Below are positions 53 to 50,662 of a DNA stretch of 59,107 nt, one piece after another (the stretch's first letter is position 1; each line of letters opens with the position of its first letter). The DNA is from an uncultured Defluviitaleaceae bacterium (lineage in GTDB: Bacteria; Bacillota; Clostridia; Lachnospirales; WRAX01), in NCBI GenBank assembly GCA_964449985.1, contig CAYVCG010000001.1:1-59107 (forward strand), given 5' to 3'. The notes beneath the pieces are model-generated. The model did not search any database, had not been told where the DNA came from, and saw only the letters and a list, made by a program, of their open reading frames with translations. The translations under genes were made by a program, and so were the position numbers.

Positions 53-235
53 AATCAAGGGTTATTGTTTTCTCGTGATCATCTATTGGATATTGTTTGG
101 GGATATGAATATATCGGTGGTACGAGAACAGTGGACACACATATACAAAAACTAAGGTCAAAGCTTGATTTTGGGGACGTAATAAAAACTGTTTATAAAA
201 TTGGATATAAGTTTGAGGTGAACGAAAATGAGTGA
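53..235 (+). CDS. OmpR/PhoB-family response regulator, C-terminal winged-helix fragment (upstream part not readable in frame; possibly disrupted)
   Basis: Frame 2 from nt 53 reads NQGLLFSRDHLLDIVWGYEYIGGTRTVDTHIQKLRSKLDFGDVIKTVYKIGYKFEVNENE*, the typical OmpR-type DNA-binding end. Stop TGA 233-235 overlaps ATG 228 of the kinase. The same frame has TGA at 41-43 and TAG at 50-52. Confidence 0.7.
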   Translation, partial: NQGLLFSRDHLLDIVWGYEYIGGTRTVDTHIQKLRSKLDFGDVIKTVYKIGYKFEVNENE

Positions 236-3068: not shown

Positions 3069-5708
3069 ATGCAGGACTTTTTAGGAACAAAGGAAGATGT
3101 ATTGAACAGATTGGGTGTAGACAAAGGCGGATTGACCGAATCAGAGGTTGCAGAAAGCAGAAAACAAAATGGTATTAACGCATTTACAAAGGAAAAACCA
3201 CCATCACTTATACATAGGATATGGGAAGCTGCAAGAGAGCCGATGATTATTATGTTGATTATGGCGGGAGTGATTGCGCTTGGAGTAAACATCACCCGTG
3301 GGTTAACTGGCGGTGAAGCGGATTTTTTAGAGTGCTTAGGCATTTTTGCAGCGATATTCTTATCGATTATCATAACGGTAATAATGGAAGGCAGAAGTGC
3401 GAAAGCGTTTGAAGCTTTAAGCAAGTTGAATGAAGATATACAGATAAAGGTTTTGCGCGATGGCGAAATACGTCTTATACCTCAATGTGATGTAGTTGTG
3501 GGGGATATTGTCATTATTGAAACAGGTGACAAGATTCCTGCTGACGGACGGATTTTAGAATGTATTGACCTAAATTCTGACGAAAGCGCACTCACAGGCG
3601 AAAGTGTTCCCGTTGAAAAGGATTCTGAGTTTGTTATACAAAATGAAAAAACACCTGTGGCGGAACGTACTAATATGTTATATTCTGGCTGTTATATAAC
3701 AAGTGGTCACGGTAAAATGTTGGTCACTGCTGTTGGGGATAAAACGGAGTTTGGTAAAATAGCGCGGGAGCTGTCGGGCACGGAAAAATCAAGCACACCA
3801 CTTCAGGAAAAGCTTGGAAAGCTAGGAAAAATCATCACTATTCTTGGGGCTGCCGCAGCCGGTATTGTGTTTGTTATCCAAACAATATTGTTTATTACTA
3901 ACGGCACAGCGTCTCTCGACACCATATCGGAGGCATTTATCACAAGCATTGTGCTGATTGTTGCGGCTGTTCCTGAGGGGTTGCCTACTATCGTTGCTGT
4001 GTCTTTGTCTGTAAATATTATCAAGATGTCCAAGCAAAACGCATTGGTCAAAAAAATGATTGCCTGCGAAACAGTTGGCTGTATAAATGTTATCTGCTCG
4101 GACAAGACAGGTACTTTAACTGAGAATAAAATGACCGTTACTGATATTTATACAGACGGAATGTTATTTAAACCCGCTAAACTTAAAAATAATTTGCTCA
4201 CAGAGAATTTTTGCATAAATAGCACAGCTGATGTTAGCTTTAAGTCGGACAGGCCTTCCTTTATTGGAAATCCTACCGAGTGTGCGCTGCTTGTGGCGGC
4301 GAATAAGGCGGGTCAAGAGTATAAGCAAGTCCGGGATAATGCATCGATTTTGCACAGCTATCCGTTTTCCTCCGAAACAAAGAATATGACAACCATTGTC
4401 AAAAGAGATAACGGCGCTGTTGCTTTCACAAAGGGCAGCCCAGAAAAAATTCTTGCTATGTGCGCTATATCAGAAGAAGCCGCAAAAGCAGCAGACGAGC
4501 AAATTACAGCTTTTCAAAAGAAAGCTGCAAGAGTTATTGCCTTTGCGCATAAGGAAATTGAGCAGGATATTGATTTTATAAATTGCAGAGAGCAAATTGA
4601 AAGCGATATGGTGTTTGATGGATTTGTGGCTATATCTGATCCGTTGCGCTCTGATGTATACGATGCTGTTTTGCACTGCCGAAATGCGGGAATTGACCTT
4701 AAAATGCTTACAGGCGATAACATTATTACAGCCACAGCAATTGCGGACGAGCTTGGCATATTGGATGACGAACATATCGCTGTGGAAGCAAAAGAACTAG
4801 ACGAGCTTTCTGATGAAGAATTTAATAAAATCATTCCTAAAATACGTGTAATTGCTAGAAGCACACCGATAATTAAGATGCGCGTTGTTAAGGCGTTAAA
4901 AGCAATGGGCAATATTGTTGCCGTAACAGGCGATGGTATTAACGATGCTCCTGCTATTAAAAACGCCGATGTTGGAGTAGCAATGGGCATTACGGGCACG
5001 GAGGTTTCTAAGGAGGCAAGCGATATAGTTCTCCTTGATGACAGCTTTTCAACCATCGTTAGAGCGGTGCATTGGGGGCGCGGTATTTATGAGAATTTTC
5101 AGCGGTTTATACAGTTTCAACTAACTGTAAATGTGGCTTCGGTTATTACTGTGTTGTTTTCCGTAATGGCAGGCTTTAAATCACCGTTTACGGCGTTGCA
5201 GCTTTTGTGGATTAATATTGTAATGGATGGTCCTCCTGCGCTAACGCTTGGTCTTGAGCCGATTCGGGGTGATCTGATGAAGCGTAAACCAACAAGCCGT
5301 GATGCAAACATTATTTCTAAGGGTATGTTATCAAGGATTGCTGTAAACGGTATATTTATTTCAGTGATATTTCTCTCTCAACAGGCCTTTAATATCTTGG
5401 GCGCTACGGCGGAACAGATGCCGACCGTTTTGTTCACACTGTTTGTAGTATTTCAGCTGTTTAATGCGTTTAATAGCCGTGAGCTTACTGATACAAGCAT
5501 TTTAAAAAACATAACTACAAATAAGCTTATGCTTTTGGTTTTTGCTATAACGTTCAGCCTGCAAATTGTAATTACACAATTAGGTGGTGAATTTTACGGC
5601 ACAGTGCCGCTTCCACTTTTTATGTGGTTGAAGATTATCATTACGGCTTTGTCGGTGATTGTTTTGTCTGAGCTGATTAAGGCAGTTAAGAGAATGGTTG
5701 TAAAATAA
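3069..5708 (+). CDS. P-type (PII, Ca2+/Mn2+-type) cation-transporting ATPase, YloB/PMCA-like
   Basis: 879 aa with GGAGG RBS. Phosphorylation motif DKTGTLT, hinge TGDGINDAPA, TGES actuator motif, PEGLP in M4, and 10 predicted TM segments. Confidence 0.95.
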   Translation: MQDFLGTKEDVLNRLGVDKGGLTESEVAESRKQNGINAFTKEKPPSLIHRIWEAAREPMIIMLIMAGVIALGVNITRGLTGGEADFLECLGIFAAIFLSIIITVIMEGRSAKAFEALSKLNEDIQIKVLRDGEIRLIPQCDVVVGDIVIIETGDKIPADGRILECIDLNSDESALTGESVPVEKDSEFVIQNEKTPVAERTNMLYSGCYITSGHGKMLVTAVGDKTEFGKIARELSGTEKSSTPLQEKLGKLGKIITILGAAAAGIVFVIQTILFITNGTASLDTISEAFITSIVLIVAAVPEGLPTIVAVSLSVNIIKMSKQNALVKKMIACETVGCINVICSDKTGTLTENKMTVTDIYTDGMLFKPAKLKNNLLTENFCINSTADVSFKSDRPSFIGNPTECALLVAANKAGQEYKQVRDNASILHSYPFSSETKNMTTIVKRDNGAVAFTKGSPEKILAMCAISEEAAKAADEQITAFQKKAARVIAFAHKEIEQDIDFINCREQIESDMVFDGFVAISDPLRSDVYDAVLHCRNAGIDLKMLTGDNIITATAIADELGILDDEHIAVEAKELDELSDEEFNKIIPKIRVIARSTPIIKMRVVKALKAMGNIVAVTGDGINDAPAIKNADVGVAMGITGTEVSKEASDIVLLDDSFSTIVRAVHWGRGIYENFQRFIQFQLTVNVASVITVLFSVMAGFKSPFTALQLLWINIVMDGPPALTLGLEPIRGDLMKRKPTSRDANIISKGMLSRIAVNGIFISVIFLSQQAFNILGATAEQMPTVLFTLFVVFQLFNAFNSRELTDTSILKNITTNKLMLLVFAITFSLQIVITQLGGEFYGTVPLPLFMWLKIIITALSVIVLSELIKAVKRMVVK

Positions 5709-5783: not shown

Positions 5784-5857
5784 TCTATAGAATTATACGG
5801 ACGCACAATGCGCGCCCCTACAGAGATTCCGGTTTGTTAGAAATTTTGGTGTTTTTT
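5784..5857 (+). repeat. REP/REPIN-like interspersed element, copy A (internally deleted)
   Basis: It shares ATACGGACGCACAATGCGCGCCCCTACAGAGATTCCGGTTT and GTTAGAAATTTT with the copies at 37423, 45816 and 49496(-). It lacks the 33 nt that carry the second palindrome. Confidence 0.8.
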
Positions 5858-5902: not shown

Positions 5903-6613
5903 CTAATTACTTCTGCGGCTGTTTGAAGCCAATAGGATAAATCTTAATAGCTGGGCTATTGAAACAGCTGCCGCTGCAAGATATGTCATTGCTGCTGCGT
6001 TTAAAACCTTTTTAGCTGGGCTAATCTCATCTTGCGTTAATATATCATAATCTCCCAGCATTTCAATCGCCCTTTTTGAAGCGTTGAATTCTACAGGCAA
6101 AGTAATCGTTTGGAACACAACAACGCCGAAAAATAAGGCAATACCAAGATAAAGTAAATATATCCCGAGGTTTCCTGCTCCTGCGCTTAGGTAGGAAAGA
6201 AAGAAACCAAGAAGTATGAGCGGCATAGCCATCCTTGAGCCAATACTAACTACAGGGAATATAGCATTTCTTATAGCCAAAGCAGAATAACCTTCTGCAT
6301 GTTGAACGGCATGACCGGTTTCATGCGCCGCTACACCTAGCGCTGCAAGAGATTGGCTTCCATAAACGCTGTCAGACAGGCGCAAAACTTTAGCTTTTGG
6401 GTCGTAATGGTCTGTAAGGTTACCGCCAATTCTTTCAACTCTAACATCATTTATTCCCCAACGGGCTAACAGTTGGCTTGCAACCTGGGCACCTGTAAGG
6501 CCTTTTTCATTGCCGTATTTACTATATTTGCTGAATGTGTTATTAACTTTGAACTGAGCCCAAAGCGCAAAAATCATAGCAGGTATTAACAACAGGTATC
6601 CAATATTATACAT
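5903..6613 (-). CDS. YugP-family membrane zinc metallopeptidase (Zn_peptidase_2)
   Basis: HETGHAVQH motif and TM segments at both ends. Start moved to the ATG (M4 of the ORF), 9 nt after AAGGAG. Confidence 0.85.
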   Translation of the reverse strand: MYNIGYLLLIPAMIFALWAQFKVNNTFSKYSKYGNEKGLTGAQVASQLLARWGINDVRVERIGGNLTDHYDPKAKVLRLSDSVYGSQSLAALGVAAHETGHAVQHAEGYSALAIRNAIFPVVSIGSRMAMPLILLGFFLSYLSAGAGNLGIYLLYLGIALFFGVVVFQTITLPVEFNASKRAIEMLGDYDILTQDEISPAKKVLNAAAMTYLAAAAVSIAQLLRFILLASNSRRSN

Positions 6614-6660
6614 ATCAATCATCTCCTTAGCAAAAATATACGAAAACTATGGCATAAAGT

Positions 6661-33588: not shown

Positions 33589-37184
<3,596 letters not shown>

Positions 37185-37422
37185 CAATCCACACGCTTTA
37201 TTTTTACAACATTATCGCTGCGAAAACAATTTTATAAACTATTCTACAAACACTTGCGTATACAATAATAATTATAGTCATATTTGAACCAATTAGAAGT
37301 ATTTAAAAAATATTTGTATTTAAAAAGCTTTACCATGTTATTAAAATTTGATATTATTTGTAAAGTGATATATATAGATTTTGCTAAATCTATTAAATTT
37401 ATTTATTTAAATAAGTTCAGCC

Positions 37423-37547
37423 TGTCGACAATATAATAGAGCAATAATGACGCACAATGCGCGCCCCTACAGAAATTCGGGTTTTATGCCTTTGTATGGG
37501 CGAGCTTTGCCATCCGTTAGAAATTTTAGCATTTGTGGGCATCGTTA
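37423..37547 (+). repeat. REP/REPIN-like interspersed element, copy B
   Basis: TGTCGACAAT...ACGCACAATGCGCGCCCCTACAGAAATTCGGGTTTTATGCC...CCGTTAGAAATTTTAGCATTTGTGGGCATCGTTA. It aligns along its whole length with copies C and D. The second palindrome is degenerate. Confidence 0.85.
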
Positions 37548-37612
37548 ATTTATTTAAAATAAAGTTATTTTCTTACTTTATGTTATCTTAAAATTTTTAG
37601 GAGGAATTATGT

Positions 37613-38227
37613 GTGATAAATATTTGGATATATATTTCGTTTATTCCAGGGATAATTATAGCATGTGGATTGCATGAATATGTTAAAGCAGTTGTGAGCA
37701 CAAGGTTGGGAGACCCTGTTCCAAAGCAAAAAGGCAGGCTCACTTTAAACCCTTTCGCTCATATTGATCTGCTGGGTGCTATTTTAATATTAATAACCGG
37801 CTTTGGTTGGGCCAAACCCGTTCAAACATCTCCTATATTTTATAAGAATAGAAAAAGGGATACTTTGATTACGTATATTATGCCATCTGTTTGTAATCTA
37901 TTTATAGGTGTTTGCTTTTCTCTTGCATACAATTTGGCTTATCCTTATTTAGAAAATATAATTGTTTCTAATGCCGGCGTTGGTATGTTCATTCAAAATA
38001 CTATTATTGGTGTTGCGCTAATAAATATTAACATGGCGTTCTTTAATTTAATACCTGTATACCCTCTTGACGGCGCAAAGATTTTGAATATGTTTGTATC
38101 CGCAGAAACTGCCATAAAGCTGCAACGGTCGGAGCATATTTTTCAGATGATTCTTGTTTTCCTTTTGCTTATGGGATATATTGGCATGATAATAAACCCT
38201 TTTGTCAATCTTATACTGAGATTCTAG
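37613..38227 (+). CDS. Peptidase M50 (site-2 protease) family membrane protein with variant HExxK motif
   Basis: 204 aa; GTG start 7 nt after GGAGGA. LHEYVKAV..RLGDP...GRLTLNPFAHIDLLG...NLIPVYPLDG matches the YwhC-like M50 family, but the second His codon is AAA (Lys) at 37685-37687. Confidence 0.8.
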   Translation: MINIWIYISFIPGIIIACGLHEYVKAVVSTRLGDPVPKQKGRLTLNPFAHIDLLGAILILITGFGWAKPVQTSPIFYKNRKRDTLITYIMPSVCNLFIGVCFSLAYNLAYPYLENIIVSNAGVGMFIQNTIIGVALININMAFFNLIPVYPLDGAKILNMFVSAETAIKLQRSEHIFQMILVFLLLMGYIGMIINPFVNLILRF

Positions 38228-45359: not shown

Positions 45360-45800
45360 ATGGAAAATATAAATGACAAAAATAAATATAAAGATTTAGT
45401 TATGCAAGCTCTAAAGGCTAAAGAGCGCTCATATTCGCCATATTCCCAATTCAAAGTGGGGGCGGCGCTTATGAGCTCAGCCGGAAAGGTTTACACCGGA
45501 GCGAACATAGAATCAGCCGCATATTCTCCAACAAACTGCGCAGAGCGCACTGCTTTTTTTAAAGCTGTCTTTGATGGTGAGCGAAGCTTTGAAGCTATTG
45601 CCGTTTGTGGAAGCGGAAATGATTATTGCCATCCTTGCGGCGTCTGCCTTCAAGTCATGATGGAGTTTTGCAATCCCAATAGATTCTTTGTTATTGTTAT
45701 AAAGGATGCGGATCACTATAACGTTTACACTCTCAAACAATTGCTGCCGCACGGGTTTGGCCCAGCTGATCTCGGCGCAAATAAAAAGGGCGATATTTAG
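45360..45800 (+). CDS. cdd: Cytidine deaminase
   Basis: 146 aa with CAERTA and PCGVCLQ zinc-binding motifs. Confidence 0.93.
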   Translation: MENINDKNKYKDLVMQALKAKERSYSPYSQFKVGAALMSSAGKVYTGANIESAAYSPTNCAERTAFFKAVFDGERSFEAIAVCGSGNDYCHPCGVCLQVMMEFCNPNRFFVIVIKDADHYNVYTLKQLLPHGFGPADLGANKKGDI

Positions 45801-45811
45801 CCATCGCCCTT
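45786..45811 (+). repeat. Left copy of duplicated cdd terminator hairpin (no T-tract)
   Basis: AAGGGCGAtatttagccaTCGCCCTT contains the cdd stop codon. 24/26 identical to 45941-45966. Confidence 0.85.
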
Positions 45812-45815
45812 ATGC

Positions 45816-45940
45816 TGTCGACAATTCATCGAACAATACGGACGCGCAATGCGCGCCCCTACAGAAATTCCGGTTTTATGCCGTTTGCAAGGGCACCCAT
45901 TGGCCGTCCTTTAGAAATTTAGTATTTGTCGACATCGTGA
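45816..45940 (+). repeat. REP/REPIN-like interspersed element, copy C
   Basis: TGTCGACAATTCATCGAACAATACGGACGCGCAATGCGCGCCCCTACAGAAATTCCGGTTTTATGCC...GGCCGTCCTTTAGAAATTTAGTATTTGTCGACATCGTGA, with terminal TGTCGACAA / TTGTCGACA inverted repeats. Confidence 0.88.
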
Positions 45941-45971
45941 AAGGGCGACATTTAACCATCGCCCTTTTTCT
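45941..45971 (+). terminator. Right copy of the cdd terminator hairpin, with T-tract (functional terminator)
   Basis: AAGGGCGAcatttaaccaTCGCCCTTTTTC: 8-bp GC-rich stem plus T5. Confidence 0.75.
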
Positions 45972-45979
45972 ATTTGCAA

Positions 45980-46180
45980 TTAATTTCTTCTATCGCTATA
46001 ATCAATAAATTCCTTATCTTTTGGCGTATCTTTCGGTCTTTCATCCGTTAATGGGTAACCGTGTTTTATTCTCTGCATTCTCTCCAGATGAGTAAAAGCC
46101 ATCTTTACGACCATAAGCACAAAAGAAAAAACTATACCCACTATTATAATAGCTGTTGCTGCCTCAAAAAAATCCATCAT
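45980..46180 (-). CDS. Small membrane protein, hypothetical
   Basis: 66 aa with one TM helix (AATAIIIVGIVFSFVLMVV) and a charged tail. ATG 7 nt after GAAGGGG. Lies downstream of dpaB on the same strand. Confidence 0.55.
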   Translation of the reverse strand: MMDFFEAATAIIIVGIVFSFVLMVVKMAFTHLERMQRIKHGYPLTDERPKDTPKDKEFIDYSDRRN

Positions 46181-46254
46181 ATACAAACCCCTTCATTCGT
46201 TATTTTATAAATAAATATACGGAGGTTTTTTTATATAGTCTTATTGTTTAGGAT

Positions 46255-49462: not shown

Positions 49463-49495
49463 CAATAAAAATAGGGTGGAATTTTTATCCACCCT
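49463..49495 (-). terminator. Intrinsic terminator (distal copy of duplicated hairpin) ending the SPFH/Tim44-like operon
   Basis: Minus strand: AGGGTGGA-uaaaaau-UCCACCCU followed by AUUUUUAUU. Confidence 0.75.
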
Positions 49496-49620
49496 CACGA
49501 TATTGACAAATACTAAAATTTCTAACGGACGGCCAATGGCCGCCCCTACAAATGGCGTAAAACCAGAATTTCTGTAGGGGCGCGCATTGCGCGCCCGTAT
49601 TGTTCGATAAATTGTCCACA
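49496..49620 (-). repeat. REP/REPIN-like interspersed element, copy D (best preserved)
   Basis: The reverse complement aligns end to end with copy C. It has two perfect or near-perfect 8-bp palindromes: GGGCGCGC-ATT-GCGCGCCC (49578-49596) and GGACGGCC-AAT-GGCCGCCC (49527-49545). Their GTAG/CTAC heads face each other across 24 nt. Confidence 0.88.
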
Positions 49621-49625
49621 GCCTA

Positions 49626-49648
49626 AGGTTGGAATTTTTATCCACCCT
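49626..49648 (-). repeat. Proximal, degenerate copy of the duplicated terminator hairpin
   Basis: AGGTTGGAATTTTTATCCACCCT is 22/23 identical to 49473-49495. The single change breaks the stem, and no T-tract follows on the minus strand. Confidence 0.8.
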
Positions 49649-49667: not shown

Positions 49668-50627
49668 CTAATACCCTCTAACACTGTTTATCTCACACAG
49701 CACCCAGTCAAACTTACCTGTTGTTATAACGCTGTCACAATACTGGCATTGTCCGGATGATGTTATATCAGTCGGCGCGCCACAATTAGGACAGTTAGTC
49801 GTGCTTAGGTTGCTTGTAGACGGATTCGTTTTTGTATCCGCGCTGCGTATAAATTTCAGCAAGTATGCCATACGATATACTTTATTAGGATCTCCGCGCA
49901 ATACCTTGCCGGTTTCATCGTCGATAAAGTAGTCATTCATCTTCGCATTTAAATAAACGGTCAGATAAGCATAATCTTCATCCTTTGAATATGCTGTCAA
50001 ATACGCATCATTTACGCAAATATTTTCCACGATATTAGTCCTTTTGTTATCAATATGCTCTTGAAGCTGCAACTGATGCGTCTTGAAAAGCGTATCGTTT
50101 TCGAAAGGCCTTGCCAATTTCCAATCACGTTTGGTCCATGCTGTTTGAAGCTGAACAAACACTTCTTTTGACCATGAAATAAACTTATCTGATGAGAATA
50201 ACTGGTCTTCCTCTTTTATTTGCGCTGATATCGCCTCAGTGTTATTCGGATGGTTTTGAGGTATTTGCGAACTGTCTAACGGGCGCAGGTTTTTATCCGA
50301 AGAACTGCTATTGCGGCTTACACTCTTGCCAATAAACACTAGAACTATAACAACAACAATTAATCCAACAAATCCCAACGGCCCATTCGTAAAGAACAGC
50401 AAAATAATCCATATCAAAAAGTCACTAGAATCGCCGTTACTACTGCCATAACCTCCGTCGTATCCTCCCCCGTCAAAGCTTCCTCCATCTGAATCATAAC
50501 TATTAAAATTCCCAACATCTGCCATGGCATAACGTGGGCTAAGATTAATCGTGATGTTTACAGTCCCAACTGTTATACACACCATAACAACAATATATAG
50601 CAGCCGCCTAATCATGTTATTCTTCAT
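49668..50627 (-). CDS. Tim44-like domain membrane protein with C-terminal zinc ribbon
   Basis: N-terminal TM, Gly/Ser/Asp-rich segment, second TM, Tim44-like alpha/beta region, then CPNCGA...CQYC. ATG after GGGAGAG. Confidence 0.75.
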   Translation of the reverse strand: MKNNMIRRLLYIVVMVCITVGTVNITINLSPRYAMADVGNFNSYDSDGGSFDGGGYDGGYGSSNGDSSDFLIWIILLFFTNGPLGFVGLIVVVIVLVFIGKSVSRNSSSSDKNLRPLDSSQIPQNHPNNTEAISAQIKEEDQLFSSDKFISWSKEVFVQLQTAWTKRDWKLARPFENDTLFKTHQLQLQEHIDNKRTNIVENICVNDAYLTAYSKDEDYAYLTVYLNAKMNDYFIDDETGKVLRGDPNKVYRMAYLLKFIRSADTKTNPSTSNLSTTNCPNCGAPTDITSSGQCQYCDSVITTGKFDWVLCEINSVRGY

Positions 50628-50662
50628 AACATACTCTCCCAATCATTTTTATTAGCACAAGG

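Follow-up and report, generated by a model that had tools for sequence, protein, structure and literature searches.

A small REP-carrying element, best read as a MITE, lies between duplicated terminator hairpins in a clostridial genome

The cytidine deaminase gene cdd (45360-45800, plus strand) of an uncultured Defluviitaleaceae bacterium is followed by two copies of one terminator hairpin, with a GC-rich palindromic element standing exactly between them. What kind of element is this, and how did it come to be bracketed by two copies of a host hairpin? The stretch of DNA analysed, 59,107 nt in total, is referred to here as the window. The gene assignment is supported by the Pfam domains dCMP_cyt_deam_1/2 on record for a protein identical to the cdd product, and the gene content of the window is of the spore-forming Clostridia type (dpaA/dpaB, PFOR), in agreement with the clostridial origin proposed in an earlier, sequence-only reading.

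The window contains three full copies (A, B and C) and one internally deleted copy (D) of a non-coding element of about 128 bp, and these are the four copies that the sequence-only reading had recorded. All are intergenic and lie within 59 kb. Copy A is 128 nt (45812-45939, plus strand), copy B is 130 nt (49496-49625, minus strand, inverted relative to A) and copy C is 129 nt (37418-37546, plus strand), with 81-88% pairwise identity between the three. Copy D (5784-5857, plus strand) is decayed, having lost the second palindrome and the middle of the element with its spacer, and its right tip is degenerate. A 17-nt core, AATGCGCGCCCCTACAG, has four exact matches in the window against 0.15 expected by chance. 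The longer common core described previously was recovered, except that copy C has ATGACGCAC in place of ACGGACGC. The G+C content is 38.7% for the window, 45-48% for the elements and 74% for the REP unit.

Two REP types, R1 (consensus GTAGGGGCGCGCATTGCGCGYCC) and R2 (consensus GTAGGGGCGGCCATTGGCCGTCC), make up the body of the element as an inverted doublet, arranged tail-to-tail ('TT', GTAG inward) with a 24-nt spacer. In copy A, R1 (45840-45862, GTAG on the minus strand) reads GTAG-GGGCGCGC-ATT-GCGCGTCC. The second, related palindrome that had been seen inverted some 24 nt further on is R2, on the plus strand at 45887-45909 and 24 nt from R1, its head degenerated to GCAA. Copy B has R1 at 49574-49596 (GTAG on the plus strand) and R2 at 49527-49549 (minus strand), the only R2 in the window with an intact GTAG head. 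Copy C has R1 at 37448-37470 and R2 at 37494-37515 with the head GTAT, and copy D retains R1 at 5799-5821. The motif GTAG-GGGCGCGC-ATT-GCGCGYCC is found in all four copies of R1, and the earlier identification of GTAG-type REPs in an inverted doublet is genuine. A GTAG head immediately before a GC-rich stem with three G-C pairs at its base, two related REP types, inverted pairing and an extragenic location at gene 3' ends are all shared with REP/REPIN-RAYT systems. Unlike REPs and REPINs, the window element has terminal inverted repeats (TIRs) outside the REPs and target duplications of 22-28 bp. For the element as a whole, folding is not clearly better than for shuffled sequences (z -1.3, -2.5 and +0.4).

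R1 and R2 belong to a RAYT-associated REP family that is widespread in Clostridia. Both were found in dozens of Clostridia genomes, and they are multi-copy elsewhere, with more than 30 loci from MAG OH_SBB_121 alone. RAYT-like Y1 transposase genes, located by a search for HUH/Y-NP motifs, are flanked by R1/R2 REPs in other Clostridia and also hold REPs in-frame. One such gene (L087) lies between R1/R2 arrays; it matches NF047646 with an E-value of 1e-17 and 64 bits, against a cut-off of 80, and its best PDB hit is 4ER8. Another (L158) has REPs on its flanks, and in-frame REPs are present in the genes at L073, L155/156 and L161/162. REPs that flank RAYT-like genes and also lie in-frame within them are a hallmark of RAYT subclass 2.4 (PMC6006769). 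This subclass of Quentin et al. 2018, which equals RAYT group 4 of Bertels et al. 2017, is the closest RAYT group (PMC6006769). The main text of a 2013 survey of GTAG-REPs makes no mention of Firmicutes or Clostridia (PMC3733652). The window itself has no Y1 gene or any other transposase. In 114 loci with REPs, enrichment of protein families was confined to ABC transporters and similar families.

The hairpins that flank copy A are 25/27 identical (45785-45811 and 45940-45966), with both mismatches in the loop; the earlier count had been 24/26. The left copy (AAAGGGCGA-tatttagcca-TCGCCCTT, plus strand) includes the cdd stop codon at 45798-45800, as had been noticed, and has no T-tract on the plus strand, although together with its upstream A-tract it is terminator-like on the minus strand. 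The right copy and its T-tract (45940-45970, plus strand) form a functional-looking cdd terminator, and it is indeed only here that the T's are found. The left hairpin copy folds with -9.2 kcal/mol (z -4.8). A repeat finder extended the duplication to 45 nt; the extra 18 nt match at 11/18 positions in AT-rich DNA and have no equivalent at copy B, so the extension is taken as chance. Copy B has a duplication that the sequence-only reading did not include, with 22/23 identity between 49626-49648 and 49473-49495. Its gene-proximal hairpin (49626-49648, minus strand, AGGGTGGATAAAAATTCCAaCCT) has a stem broken by one substitution and no T-tract. The distal feature (49464-49495, minus strand) has a perfect stem followed by ATTTTTATT, and was called terminator-like in a terminator scan. 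The same scan missed the distal hairpin of copy A, which has a 10-nt loop, an intact stem and its T-tract. The loss of pairing in the gene-proximal hairpin of copy B is as expected for a redundant duplicate.

These duplicated sequences are locus-specific, copies A and B each having their own hairpin. The flanks score 21 for A and 20 for B, whereas mismatched pairs of flanks drawn from 141 REP clusters reach 12 at most; in an alignment test, 0/1000 shuffles came up to the scores of A and B. An assembly artefact was rejected as the source of both duplications, since the junctions recur in independent assemblies: Logan assemblies of four separate runs (SRR10912415-18) reproduce both junctions of A and, for B, the right one. 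Copy C is marginal. An AT-rich palindrome, TTAAATTTATTTATTTAAATAAGTT, at 37393-37417 (plus strand) is a possible left target copy, in a duplication that would be about 22 nt, and the similarity to its partner at 37545-37566, TTAATTTATTTAAAATAAAGTT, includes indels and has a probability of ~0.06 if the repeats must be adjacent to the element. No flank repeat was found for copy D, and no other tandem hairpins were found within the 59-kb window.

Copy B, like copy A, is located downstream of a gene, which is Tim44-like (49668-50642, minus strand), and copy D is between a P-type ATPase gene (3069-5708, plus strand) and a Zn-peptidase gene (5903-6622, minus strand). Copy C is in a divergent region, between the genes for PFOR (33589-37116, minus strand) and an M50-type peptidase (37613-38227, plus strand). 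The suggestion that the element targets intrinsic terminators holds in part: gene ends and terminators are used, but the targets are palindromes rather than strictly terminators, copy C being situated in a divergent promoter region.

The inverted repeats previously noticed at the ends are present as TGTCGACAA near both ends of the element, which has TIRs of about 15 bp (in copy A, tips at 45812-45827 and 45924-45939). Alignment of eight tips, from window copies A, B and C and from a locus in a second genome, gives the consensus 5'-CAGnCTGTCGACAAAT. This second locus (L051, Oscillospiraceae RGIG3079), the tips of which match the consensus at 12/15 positions, is in a host genome unrelated to that of the window. 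Here a pseudouridine-synthase gene is followed by a hairpin, an element of 222 nt (128-130 nt in the window) with two REPs, and a second hairpin with TTTTTT; the hairpin duplication is 28/28 identical. At the orthologous loci of six related strains (L166-L170 and L171) there is a single hairpin, which is the empty site, and the proposal that the flanking hairpins are duplicated on insertion is borne out at this locus. In a further relative (L172) the same element tip, matching the consensus at 13/16 positions, abuts this hairpin foot as well, with the orientation reversed. A different REP cluster (L165) is at the same point without a duplication, and L164 is another of the different insertions at this one hairpin foot.

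Statistically solid duplications are limited to two in the window and one at L051. Each is centred on the dyad of its hairpin, and the lengths of 28 (L051), 27 (A) and 23 nt (B) go with hairpin spans of 26, 26 and 23 nt. Three or four unrelated palindromes have been used as targets. For the window's own loci no empty site was found, the exact cdd protein being present otherwise only on short contigs that end inside the element; the closest cdd homologue (P0122) is not syntenic and the rest are at most 68% identical.

The duplication had previously been tied to the REP-like family as such, and this did not stand, since outside the TIR-bearing elements no duplication was found in 141 REP clusters. 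The flanks of the other approximately 138 clusters of R1/R2 REPs have no duplication that exceeds the controls; when 1.1 Mb of fetched loci were scanned for REPs enclosed by palindromic direct repeats, the TIR-bearing cases were the only ones found; and large composite REP-containing repeats in MAG OH_SBB_121 and MAG 30dZY2.bin.40 have no similar duplications. It is thus with the TIR tips that the duplication goes, and not with the REPs. A metagenome scan with the element-specific pattern GCGCCCCTACAGARATTC identified 33 loci, of which 0/33 have the window's element, and BLAST of the element against a plasmid collection gave no match. A known RNA family was rejected for the element, as no Rfam family reaches its gathering threshold anywhere in the window, and around the element there is only a chance-level match to MicX (E 0.09).

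A small non-coding unit with TIRs of about 15 nt, flanking duplications, several copies and an empty site at the L051 locus has the features of a MITE. The best reading of the ~128-bp unit is that it is a non-autonomous transposable element of this kind, the body of which is an inverted REP doublet. The full explanation put forward, to which a probability of about 0.45 is given, is that this REP-carrying MITE inserts by structure-directed, staggered transfer at the feet of cruciforms, moved in trans by a TIR-binding transposase with targeting like that of IS1272/IS1182. The geometry of strand transfer and the catalyst that we infer are as follows. The element would insert at DNA palindromes, mostly intrinsic-terminator hairpins, with the structure recognised rather than the sequence. 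Once the hairpin or cruciform is extruded, each end of the element would be attached to one of the strands, the two points of attachment being opposite feet and giving a stagger of 22-28 bp with the dyad at its centre. Gap repair would then copy the entire stem-loop, leaving hairpin, element and hairpin in succession. The catalyst would be encoded elsewhere in the genome. As the T-tract is kept only on the distal hairpin copy, transcription would run past the first hairpin, across the element and as far as the second, where it ends, so that termination is preserved and the element joins the 3' UTR. The cdd terminator would be bidirectional, and the read-through model would hold for both convergent transcripts, with a predicted antisense overlap of about 155 nt between the one from cdd and the one from the dpaB side.

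TIRs that reach the tips and the two orientations at one site fit a TIR-dependent transposase better than a RAYT. Against the MITE reading, there is no transposase in the window or beside the elements in the fetched loci, and no autonomous IS with the element's TIRs was found in 1.1 Mb (motif-pair and PWM scans, and a regular expression for the DDE motif). IS1272 itself deletes its target hairpin and makes no duplication. The duplication at copy C is marginal and there is none at copy D, and the MITE reading does not account for a REP doublet within a DDE-type element. In addition, the window copies have the same orientation relative to local transcription in 4/4 cases; a symmetric TIR mechanism gives no reason to expect this, although it could be chance, at about 1 in 8.

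Class C group II introns have their sites directly after or within intrinsic terminator hairpins at gene 3' ends; unlike the element, they leave the hairpin unduplicated and encode a reverse transcriptase or depend on one. SPRITE (PMC3049150) shares the location at terminator hairpins at gene 3' ends, but resembles a terminator itself, and no duplication has been established for it. The staphylococcal IS1272/TnSha1 of the IS1182 family inserts into terminator hairpins without sequence specificity, using the same hairpin repeatedly and in both orientations (PMC4923244). Stem-loop targets, often confirmed terminators, that are cut at the stem or its foot (PMC4923244, PMC5678879) and repeated independent insertions at one hairpin in two orientations are shared with the element. 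These are autonomous IS of 1.9 kb or composite transposons, whereas the element here is 128-222 bp, non-coding and has a REP doublet. IS1272/TnSha1 deletes or replaces the hairpin, whereas the window element duplicates it intact; this outcome follows from a cruciform model where the stem-loop is duplicated in full if the 5' feet are attacked, a pathway that was drawn (Fig 13, pathway b) but not observed (PMC5678879). The claim that the mechanism is undescribed is therefore too broad, because structure-directed insertion into terminator hairpins is known (PMC4923244, PMC5678879) and the duplication of an entire stem-loop has been drawn as a possible outcome of it (PMC5678879); what is undescribed is this footprint in a REP element. 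Unusually long target duplications, as here, are also made by IS1202 (27-28 bp, Firmicutes; bioRxiv 10.1101/2022.12.17.520857) and by IS1634/IS1549 (8-514 bp, variable; PMC2266710). Unlike in either, the duplication here is the palindrome and scales with its size.

A fixed long stagger of 27-28 bp would explain the duplication if an IS1202-family transposase moves the element, with the palindromic targets being secondary. One subgroup of this family yields 27-28-bp direct repeats and occurs in Firmicutes, and the ends of the family start with TGT (bioRxiv 10.1101/2022.12.17.520857); TGT...ACA is present near both ends of the element, two of the duplications are 27 and 28 nt, and a sister subgroup targets XerCD sites, which are imperfectly palindromic. 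However, the element tips are CAG... and TGT is 5 nt inside them (CAGnC-TGTC...), which leaves TGT/ACA separated from the duplication. With 28, 27, 23 and about 22 nt (copy C), its length follows hairpin size rather than a fixed ruler, and no such transposase was seen in the window or the fetched loci. This origin is improbable. It is also conceivable, though improbable, that there was no transposase, and that a polymerase stalled after the hairpin, copied a REP-containing element, re-primed upstream and recopied the hairpin. Targets and cargo are both strong hairpin formers, there are short T/TT overlaps at the left junctions, and such template switching explains duplications of variable, hairpin-linked length at hairpin sites only. 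It predicts ragged ends, whereas the element boundaries are precise and the same in independent copies and two genomes, with conserved inverted tips; the duplications are also symmetric about the dyad, and both orientations are found at the same nucleotide (L051, L172). That the element simply landed between tandem hairpins, pre-existing or from chance or local duplication, can hardly be credited. It could draw on the window loci having yielded no empty site and on copy C flank similarity within the chance range for AT-rich DNA. It is largely refuted for L051 by the single hairpin in six related strains, and it sits poorly with the element lying exactly between the copies at three independent loci in two genomes, with the absence of other tandem hairpins from the window and with the decay of the gene-proximal copy.

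The REP doublet itself raises a different possibility, considered unlikely, in which a RAYT takes GGG-footed terminator hairpins as surrogate REPs, cuts both cruciform strands at the feet and links the REP doublet, with its two-fold symmetry, to each strand, with fill-in duplicating the hairpin. The element body is a bona fide REP doublet from a RAYT-linked family, with RAYT-like genes that have flanking R1/R2 arrays or in-frame REPs. The target hairpins of A and B begin with GGG stems after purine-rich sequence, resembling (G)TAGGGG. Hairpin recognition and cleavage at the foot is the behaviour of HUH enzymes, and the uniform orientation of the window copies with transcription would also fit. 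CT precedes GTAG in nearly all R1 copies, and CT is the cleavage dinucleotide of the E. coli TnpAREP. How REPs disseminate was still called open in 2021 (PMC8266576). Yet the GTAG/CT sites point inward in the tail-to-tail doublet, so cutting there would not free the 128-nt unit. The same REPs lack flanking duplications in 138 other clusters, the copy C target has no GGG stem, and both orientations are found at one site (L051 and L172). Known Y1 transposition, of the IS200/IS605-RAYT type, is single-stranded and makes no target-site duplications, while duplications of 27 nt (A), 23 nt (B) and 28 nt (L051) are found here; the sequence-only reading was correct that Y1 transposition does not predict them. 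If a RAYT were nevertheless responsible, these loci would record, directly and for the first time, the molecular footprint that REP/REPIN dissemination leaves on insertion, and would be a case of an HUH enzyme making target duplications.

The hairpin-duplicating footprint is undescribed for REP elements, with related hairpin-targeting transposition already known, and searches of the available literature found no report of REPIN target-site duplications or of terminator-duplicating MITEs. For the REP-carrying MITE described here, the L051 locus provides an empty-site-controlled record of an outcome that was previously only drawn, an insertion that duplicates a whole stem-loop. The terminator function of the target would be preserved and the element would be placed within 3' UTRs. 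Such elements break short-read assemblies at gene ends, and duplicated terminators may mislead annotation pipelines. Because the REP palindromes are tied to a unit whose ends and footprint are defined, they offer a concrete substrate for a test of RAYT against a TIR-binding transposase. One REP pair and one RAYT-like gene family are common to many Clostridia (Oscillospiraceae and relatives), a group that has barely been covered in REP surveys.

Site reading and a repeat search identified a single element family in the window, with three full copies (A, 45812-45939, plus strand; B, 49496-49625, minus strand; C, 37418-37546, plus strand) and a decayed plus-strand copy with an internal deletion (D, 5784-5857). 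Pairwise identity among the full copies is 81-88%, and an invariant 17-mer, AATGCGCGCCCCTACAG, occurs four times in the window against 0.15 occurrences expected by chance. Every full copy has two inverted REP-like units, tail-to-tail with their GTAG heads inward. R1 is GTAG-GGGCGCGC-ATT-GCGCG(T/C)CC; R2 starts 24 nt after it and is GTAG-GGGCGGCC-ATT-GGCCGTCC, with an intact head in copy B but degenerate heads in the other two. In the full copies, the arms outside both REPs terminate in inverted repeats. The G+C content of the REP unit is 74%, compared with 38.7% for the window, and no Rfam family matches the element. Housekeeping genes surround it in the window (P-type ATPase, PFOR, IspG, cdd, dpaA/dpaB, a MerR regulator and IF-2); there is no transposase among the window genes.

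The sequence-only reading had reported the element copies and a duplicated hairpin at the cdd terminator, and both were confirmed on reading the four sites. Copy A is bracketed by two copies of AAAGGGCGA-N10-TCGCCCTT (45785-45811 and 45940-45966), identical at 25 of 27 positions with both mismatches in the loop. The left hairpin contains the cdd stop codon and is without a T-tract; the right one is followed by TTTTTC. Copy B has the same arrangement on the opposite strand with a different hairpin, AGGGTGGA-TAAAAAT-TCCACCCT (49626-49648 and 49473-49495, 22 of 23 identical), where the one mismatch disrupts the stem of the hairpin copy without the T-tract; decay of this redundant proximal hairpin has begun. 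The ungapped flank scores of A and B (21 and 20) were reached by none of 1000 shuffles, and mismatched flank pairs drawn from 141 REP clusters scored 12 at most. Around copy C lie two versions of an AT-rich palindrome with indels between them, a marginal similarity (237 of 1000 shuffles unconstrained, about 0.06 with adjacency required), and copy D has no flanking duplication. The loops of the flanking hairpins show the repeats to be direct, not inverted, and every duplication has the dyad of its palindrome as its centre. Both junctions of A and the right junction of B are reproduced in contigs assembled independently from four sequencing runs, which rules out a binning or assembly artefact as the source of the hairpin-element-hairpin structure.

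Since the T-tract is kept by the distal hairpin copy only, transcripts should pass the proximal hairpin, run across the element and end at the distal hairpin. An A-tract as well as a T-tract borders the cdd hairpin, and a terminator scan calls its left copy a minus-strand terminator; after duplication, both convergent transcripts would end at their far hairpin copy, overlapping across the element. Downstream of dpaB, a 65-codon ORF is called in independent assemblies (window 45975-46254, minus strand; L151, 1822-2019). Its position between dpaB and the duplicated terminator of cdd means that its transcript would be the one to enter the element from the right. This ORF has no Pfam match.

The 17-mer was found at 114 or more loci in a scan of representative genomes, and almost all of the loci listed come from MAGs or isolates of Oscillospiraceae or other Clostridia. 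Only the REP of about 26 nt is common to the window and these genomes, the arms differing genome by genome among the loci listed. R1 (GTAGGGGCGCGCATTGCGCGTCC) and R2 (GTAGGGGCGGCCATTGGCCGTCC) are nearly unchanged across dozens of Clostridia MAGs (e.g. L004, L017, L028, L036, L063, L074, L080), including Oscillospiraceae, Christensenella-like, Hungateiclostridiaceae, Acetanaerobacterium and Lawsonibacter. REP families are usually regarded as species- or genus-specific. Inverted R1 and R2 pairs number 71 among the loci listed; the GTAG heads point outward in 53 of them and inward in 18. Longer repeats are also seen. MAG Clostridiaceae 30dZY2.bin.40 has very similar copies of a unit of about 400 nt (L043, L045, two in L078, L091) that opens with a tail-to-tail R1/R2 dimer, followed by more GTAG-type hairpins and a terminal terminator-like hairpin, gcgactgcgtcgcattttt, with no duplication at the flanks of these copies. 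In MAG OH_SBB_121 (L056, L058, L109, L110, L028 and others) a heads-outward REP doublet lies within a composite repeat of about 330 nt with several nested inverted repeats, the outermost being GTGACTATTCAGTTAC ... GTAACTGAATAGTCAC.

A motif search of all ORFs of the REP loci listed identified two HUH/Y proteins. Their top family is the NCBIfam 'REP-associated tyrosine transposase', which they match with E 1e-17 and 64 bits, short of the curated 80-bit threshold; against Pfam Y1_Tnp they score 22.8 bits (cut-off 23), and the top match among solved structures is E. coli TnpAREP (4ER8), whose HUH, WQ..R and YI.NP positions line up with theirs. A RAYT-like gene flanked by these palindromes is present in other genomes: L087 has a compact 'REPtron' (397-1215) in which a gene of 150 aa (558-1011) is flanked by alternating R1/R2 arrays (397-526 and 1017-1215). 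At E <= 1e-10 this family counts 1913 members, some called RayT by JGI. Three further members have REPs flanking the gene or in-frame inside it at conserved positions. RAYT-like genes with in-frame REPs are L073, 1001-1493; L155/L156, 1501-1995; L161/L162, 1501-1989; and L163, 429-917. Their in-frame REPs lie at two conserved positions, on the plus strand near nt 112 (encoding VGARIARP) and on the minus strand near nt 285 (GRAMRAPT), and their cores differ by genome (CGC/GCG, AGC/GCT, ACC/GGT). Quentin et al. describe the same two features for their subclass 2.4, namely REPs lying in-frame within tnpAREP and three G-C pairs at the base of the stem (PMC6006769), so the REP part of the finding is a member of the known REP/RAYT system and its identification as a REP is supported. 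Firmicutes are absent from the main text of a 2013 survey of GTAG-REPs (PMC3733652).

No other R1/R2 cluster among the loci listed has a flanking direct repeat above control level. A broader scan for palindromic direct repeats bracketing REPs added exactly one case, L051 from Oscillospiraceae RGIG3079. Here an RluA-type pseudouridine-synthase gene is followed by the hairpin CACAGCCCCCTC-TTTT-GAGGGGGCTGTT, an element of 222 nt carrying two heads-outward REPs, an identical 28-nt hairpin and TTTTTT. The tips of this element, their location set by the duplication boundary, align with the six tips of copies A-C to give the consensus CAGnCTGTCGACAAAT, which each L051 tip matches at 12 of 15 positions. 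Orthologous loci were obtained via close homologues of the flanking protein. L166-L170 and L171 are empty sites, with a single hairpin, not two in tandem, and then unique DNA. In L172 the same element tip (CAGGTTGTCGAAAAAG...) is at the same hairpin foot in the opposite orientation, showing that insertion is possible both ways. In L165 the insertion point holds a different REP cluster, without duplication, and L164 (1789-1897) has a tip-like start, CAGACTGCCCTGAAAAC... (CAGACTG...), at the hairpin foot and then unrelated sequence to the contig end, possibly another member of the terminal inverted repeat (TIR) family with different cargo. These insertions at one hairpin, together with the empty sites, make the hairpin foot a hot spot, and the orthologous loci indicate that it is when the TIR-bearing element inserts that the hairpin becomes duplicated. 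Duplication tracks the element tips, not the REPs. Its length (28, 27, 23 and perhaps about 22 nt) is not of one fixed size but follows the stem-loop span (26, 26 and 23 nt).

Elsewhere in L051 (about 76-140, plus strand) a single R2 REP lies between 11-nt direct repeats, TTCCATACGCC, of which L165 has one copy only, beside its different REP. In L061, a terminator-like hairpin of 26 nt, GCCGCCCTCCAAATCGGGGGCGGCTT, is present as two perfect direct copies (2233-2258 and 2923-2948) on either side of a 664-nt cassette for the antitoxin RelB (Pfam E 2e-18) and the toxin YafQ (Pfam E 2e-23), with no REPs or element-like tips in the cassette. Duplication of an entire hairpin may thus also occur when other cargo inserts.

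Because the duplication coincides with a palindrome and shares its centre, one target strand would have been linked to the element at one foot of the stem-loop and the other strand at the opposite foot, with repair synthesis following. Such a geometry appears as 'pathway b' of a cruciform model put forward for IS1272 (PMC5678879). IS1272 and TnSha1, of the IS1182 family, target terminator hairpins repeatedly, in both orientations and with no sequence specificity (PMC4923244; PMC5678879), but they delete the target hairpin, which here is duplicated. The explanation ranked first is that a TIR-dependent, structure-directed transposase, a catalyst that is inferred, acts in trans on a REP-carrying MITE. 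A RAYT is a possible catalyst but ranks lower. In its favour, its cargo would be REP, GGG lies at the feet of the target stems, and enzymes of the HUH class cleave at hairpin feet; however, the same REPs occur elsewhere without duplications, and inward GTAG/CT sites would not free the unit. An IS1202-type transposase, known for 27-28-bp repeats in Firmicutes, ranks lower, as TGT sits 5 nt inside the tips here and the duplication lengths vary with the hairpin. Also ranked lower are template switching, which predicts ragged ends that are not seen, and insertion between pre-existing tandem hairpins, which is excluded at the L051 locus.

The evidence base is small, with three solid duplications and one marginal. 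The proposal of a wholly undescribed mechanism finds partial support only, since hairpin-targeted transposition and long duplications both have precedents. What is new is whole-hairpin duplication documented together with its empty site, and the association of that duplication with an element that carries REPs, is bounded by TIRs and occurs in two Clostridia genomes unrelated to each other.
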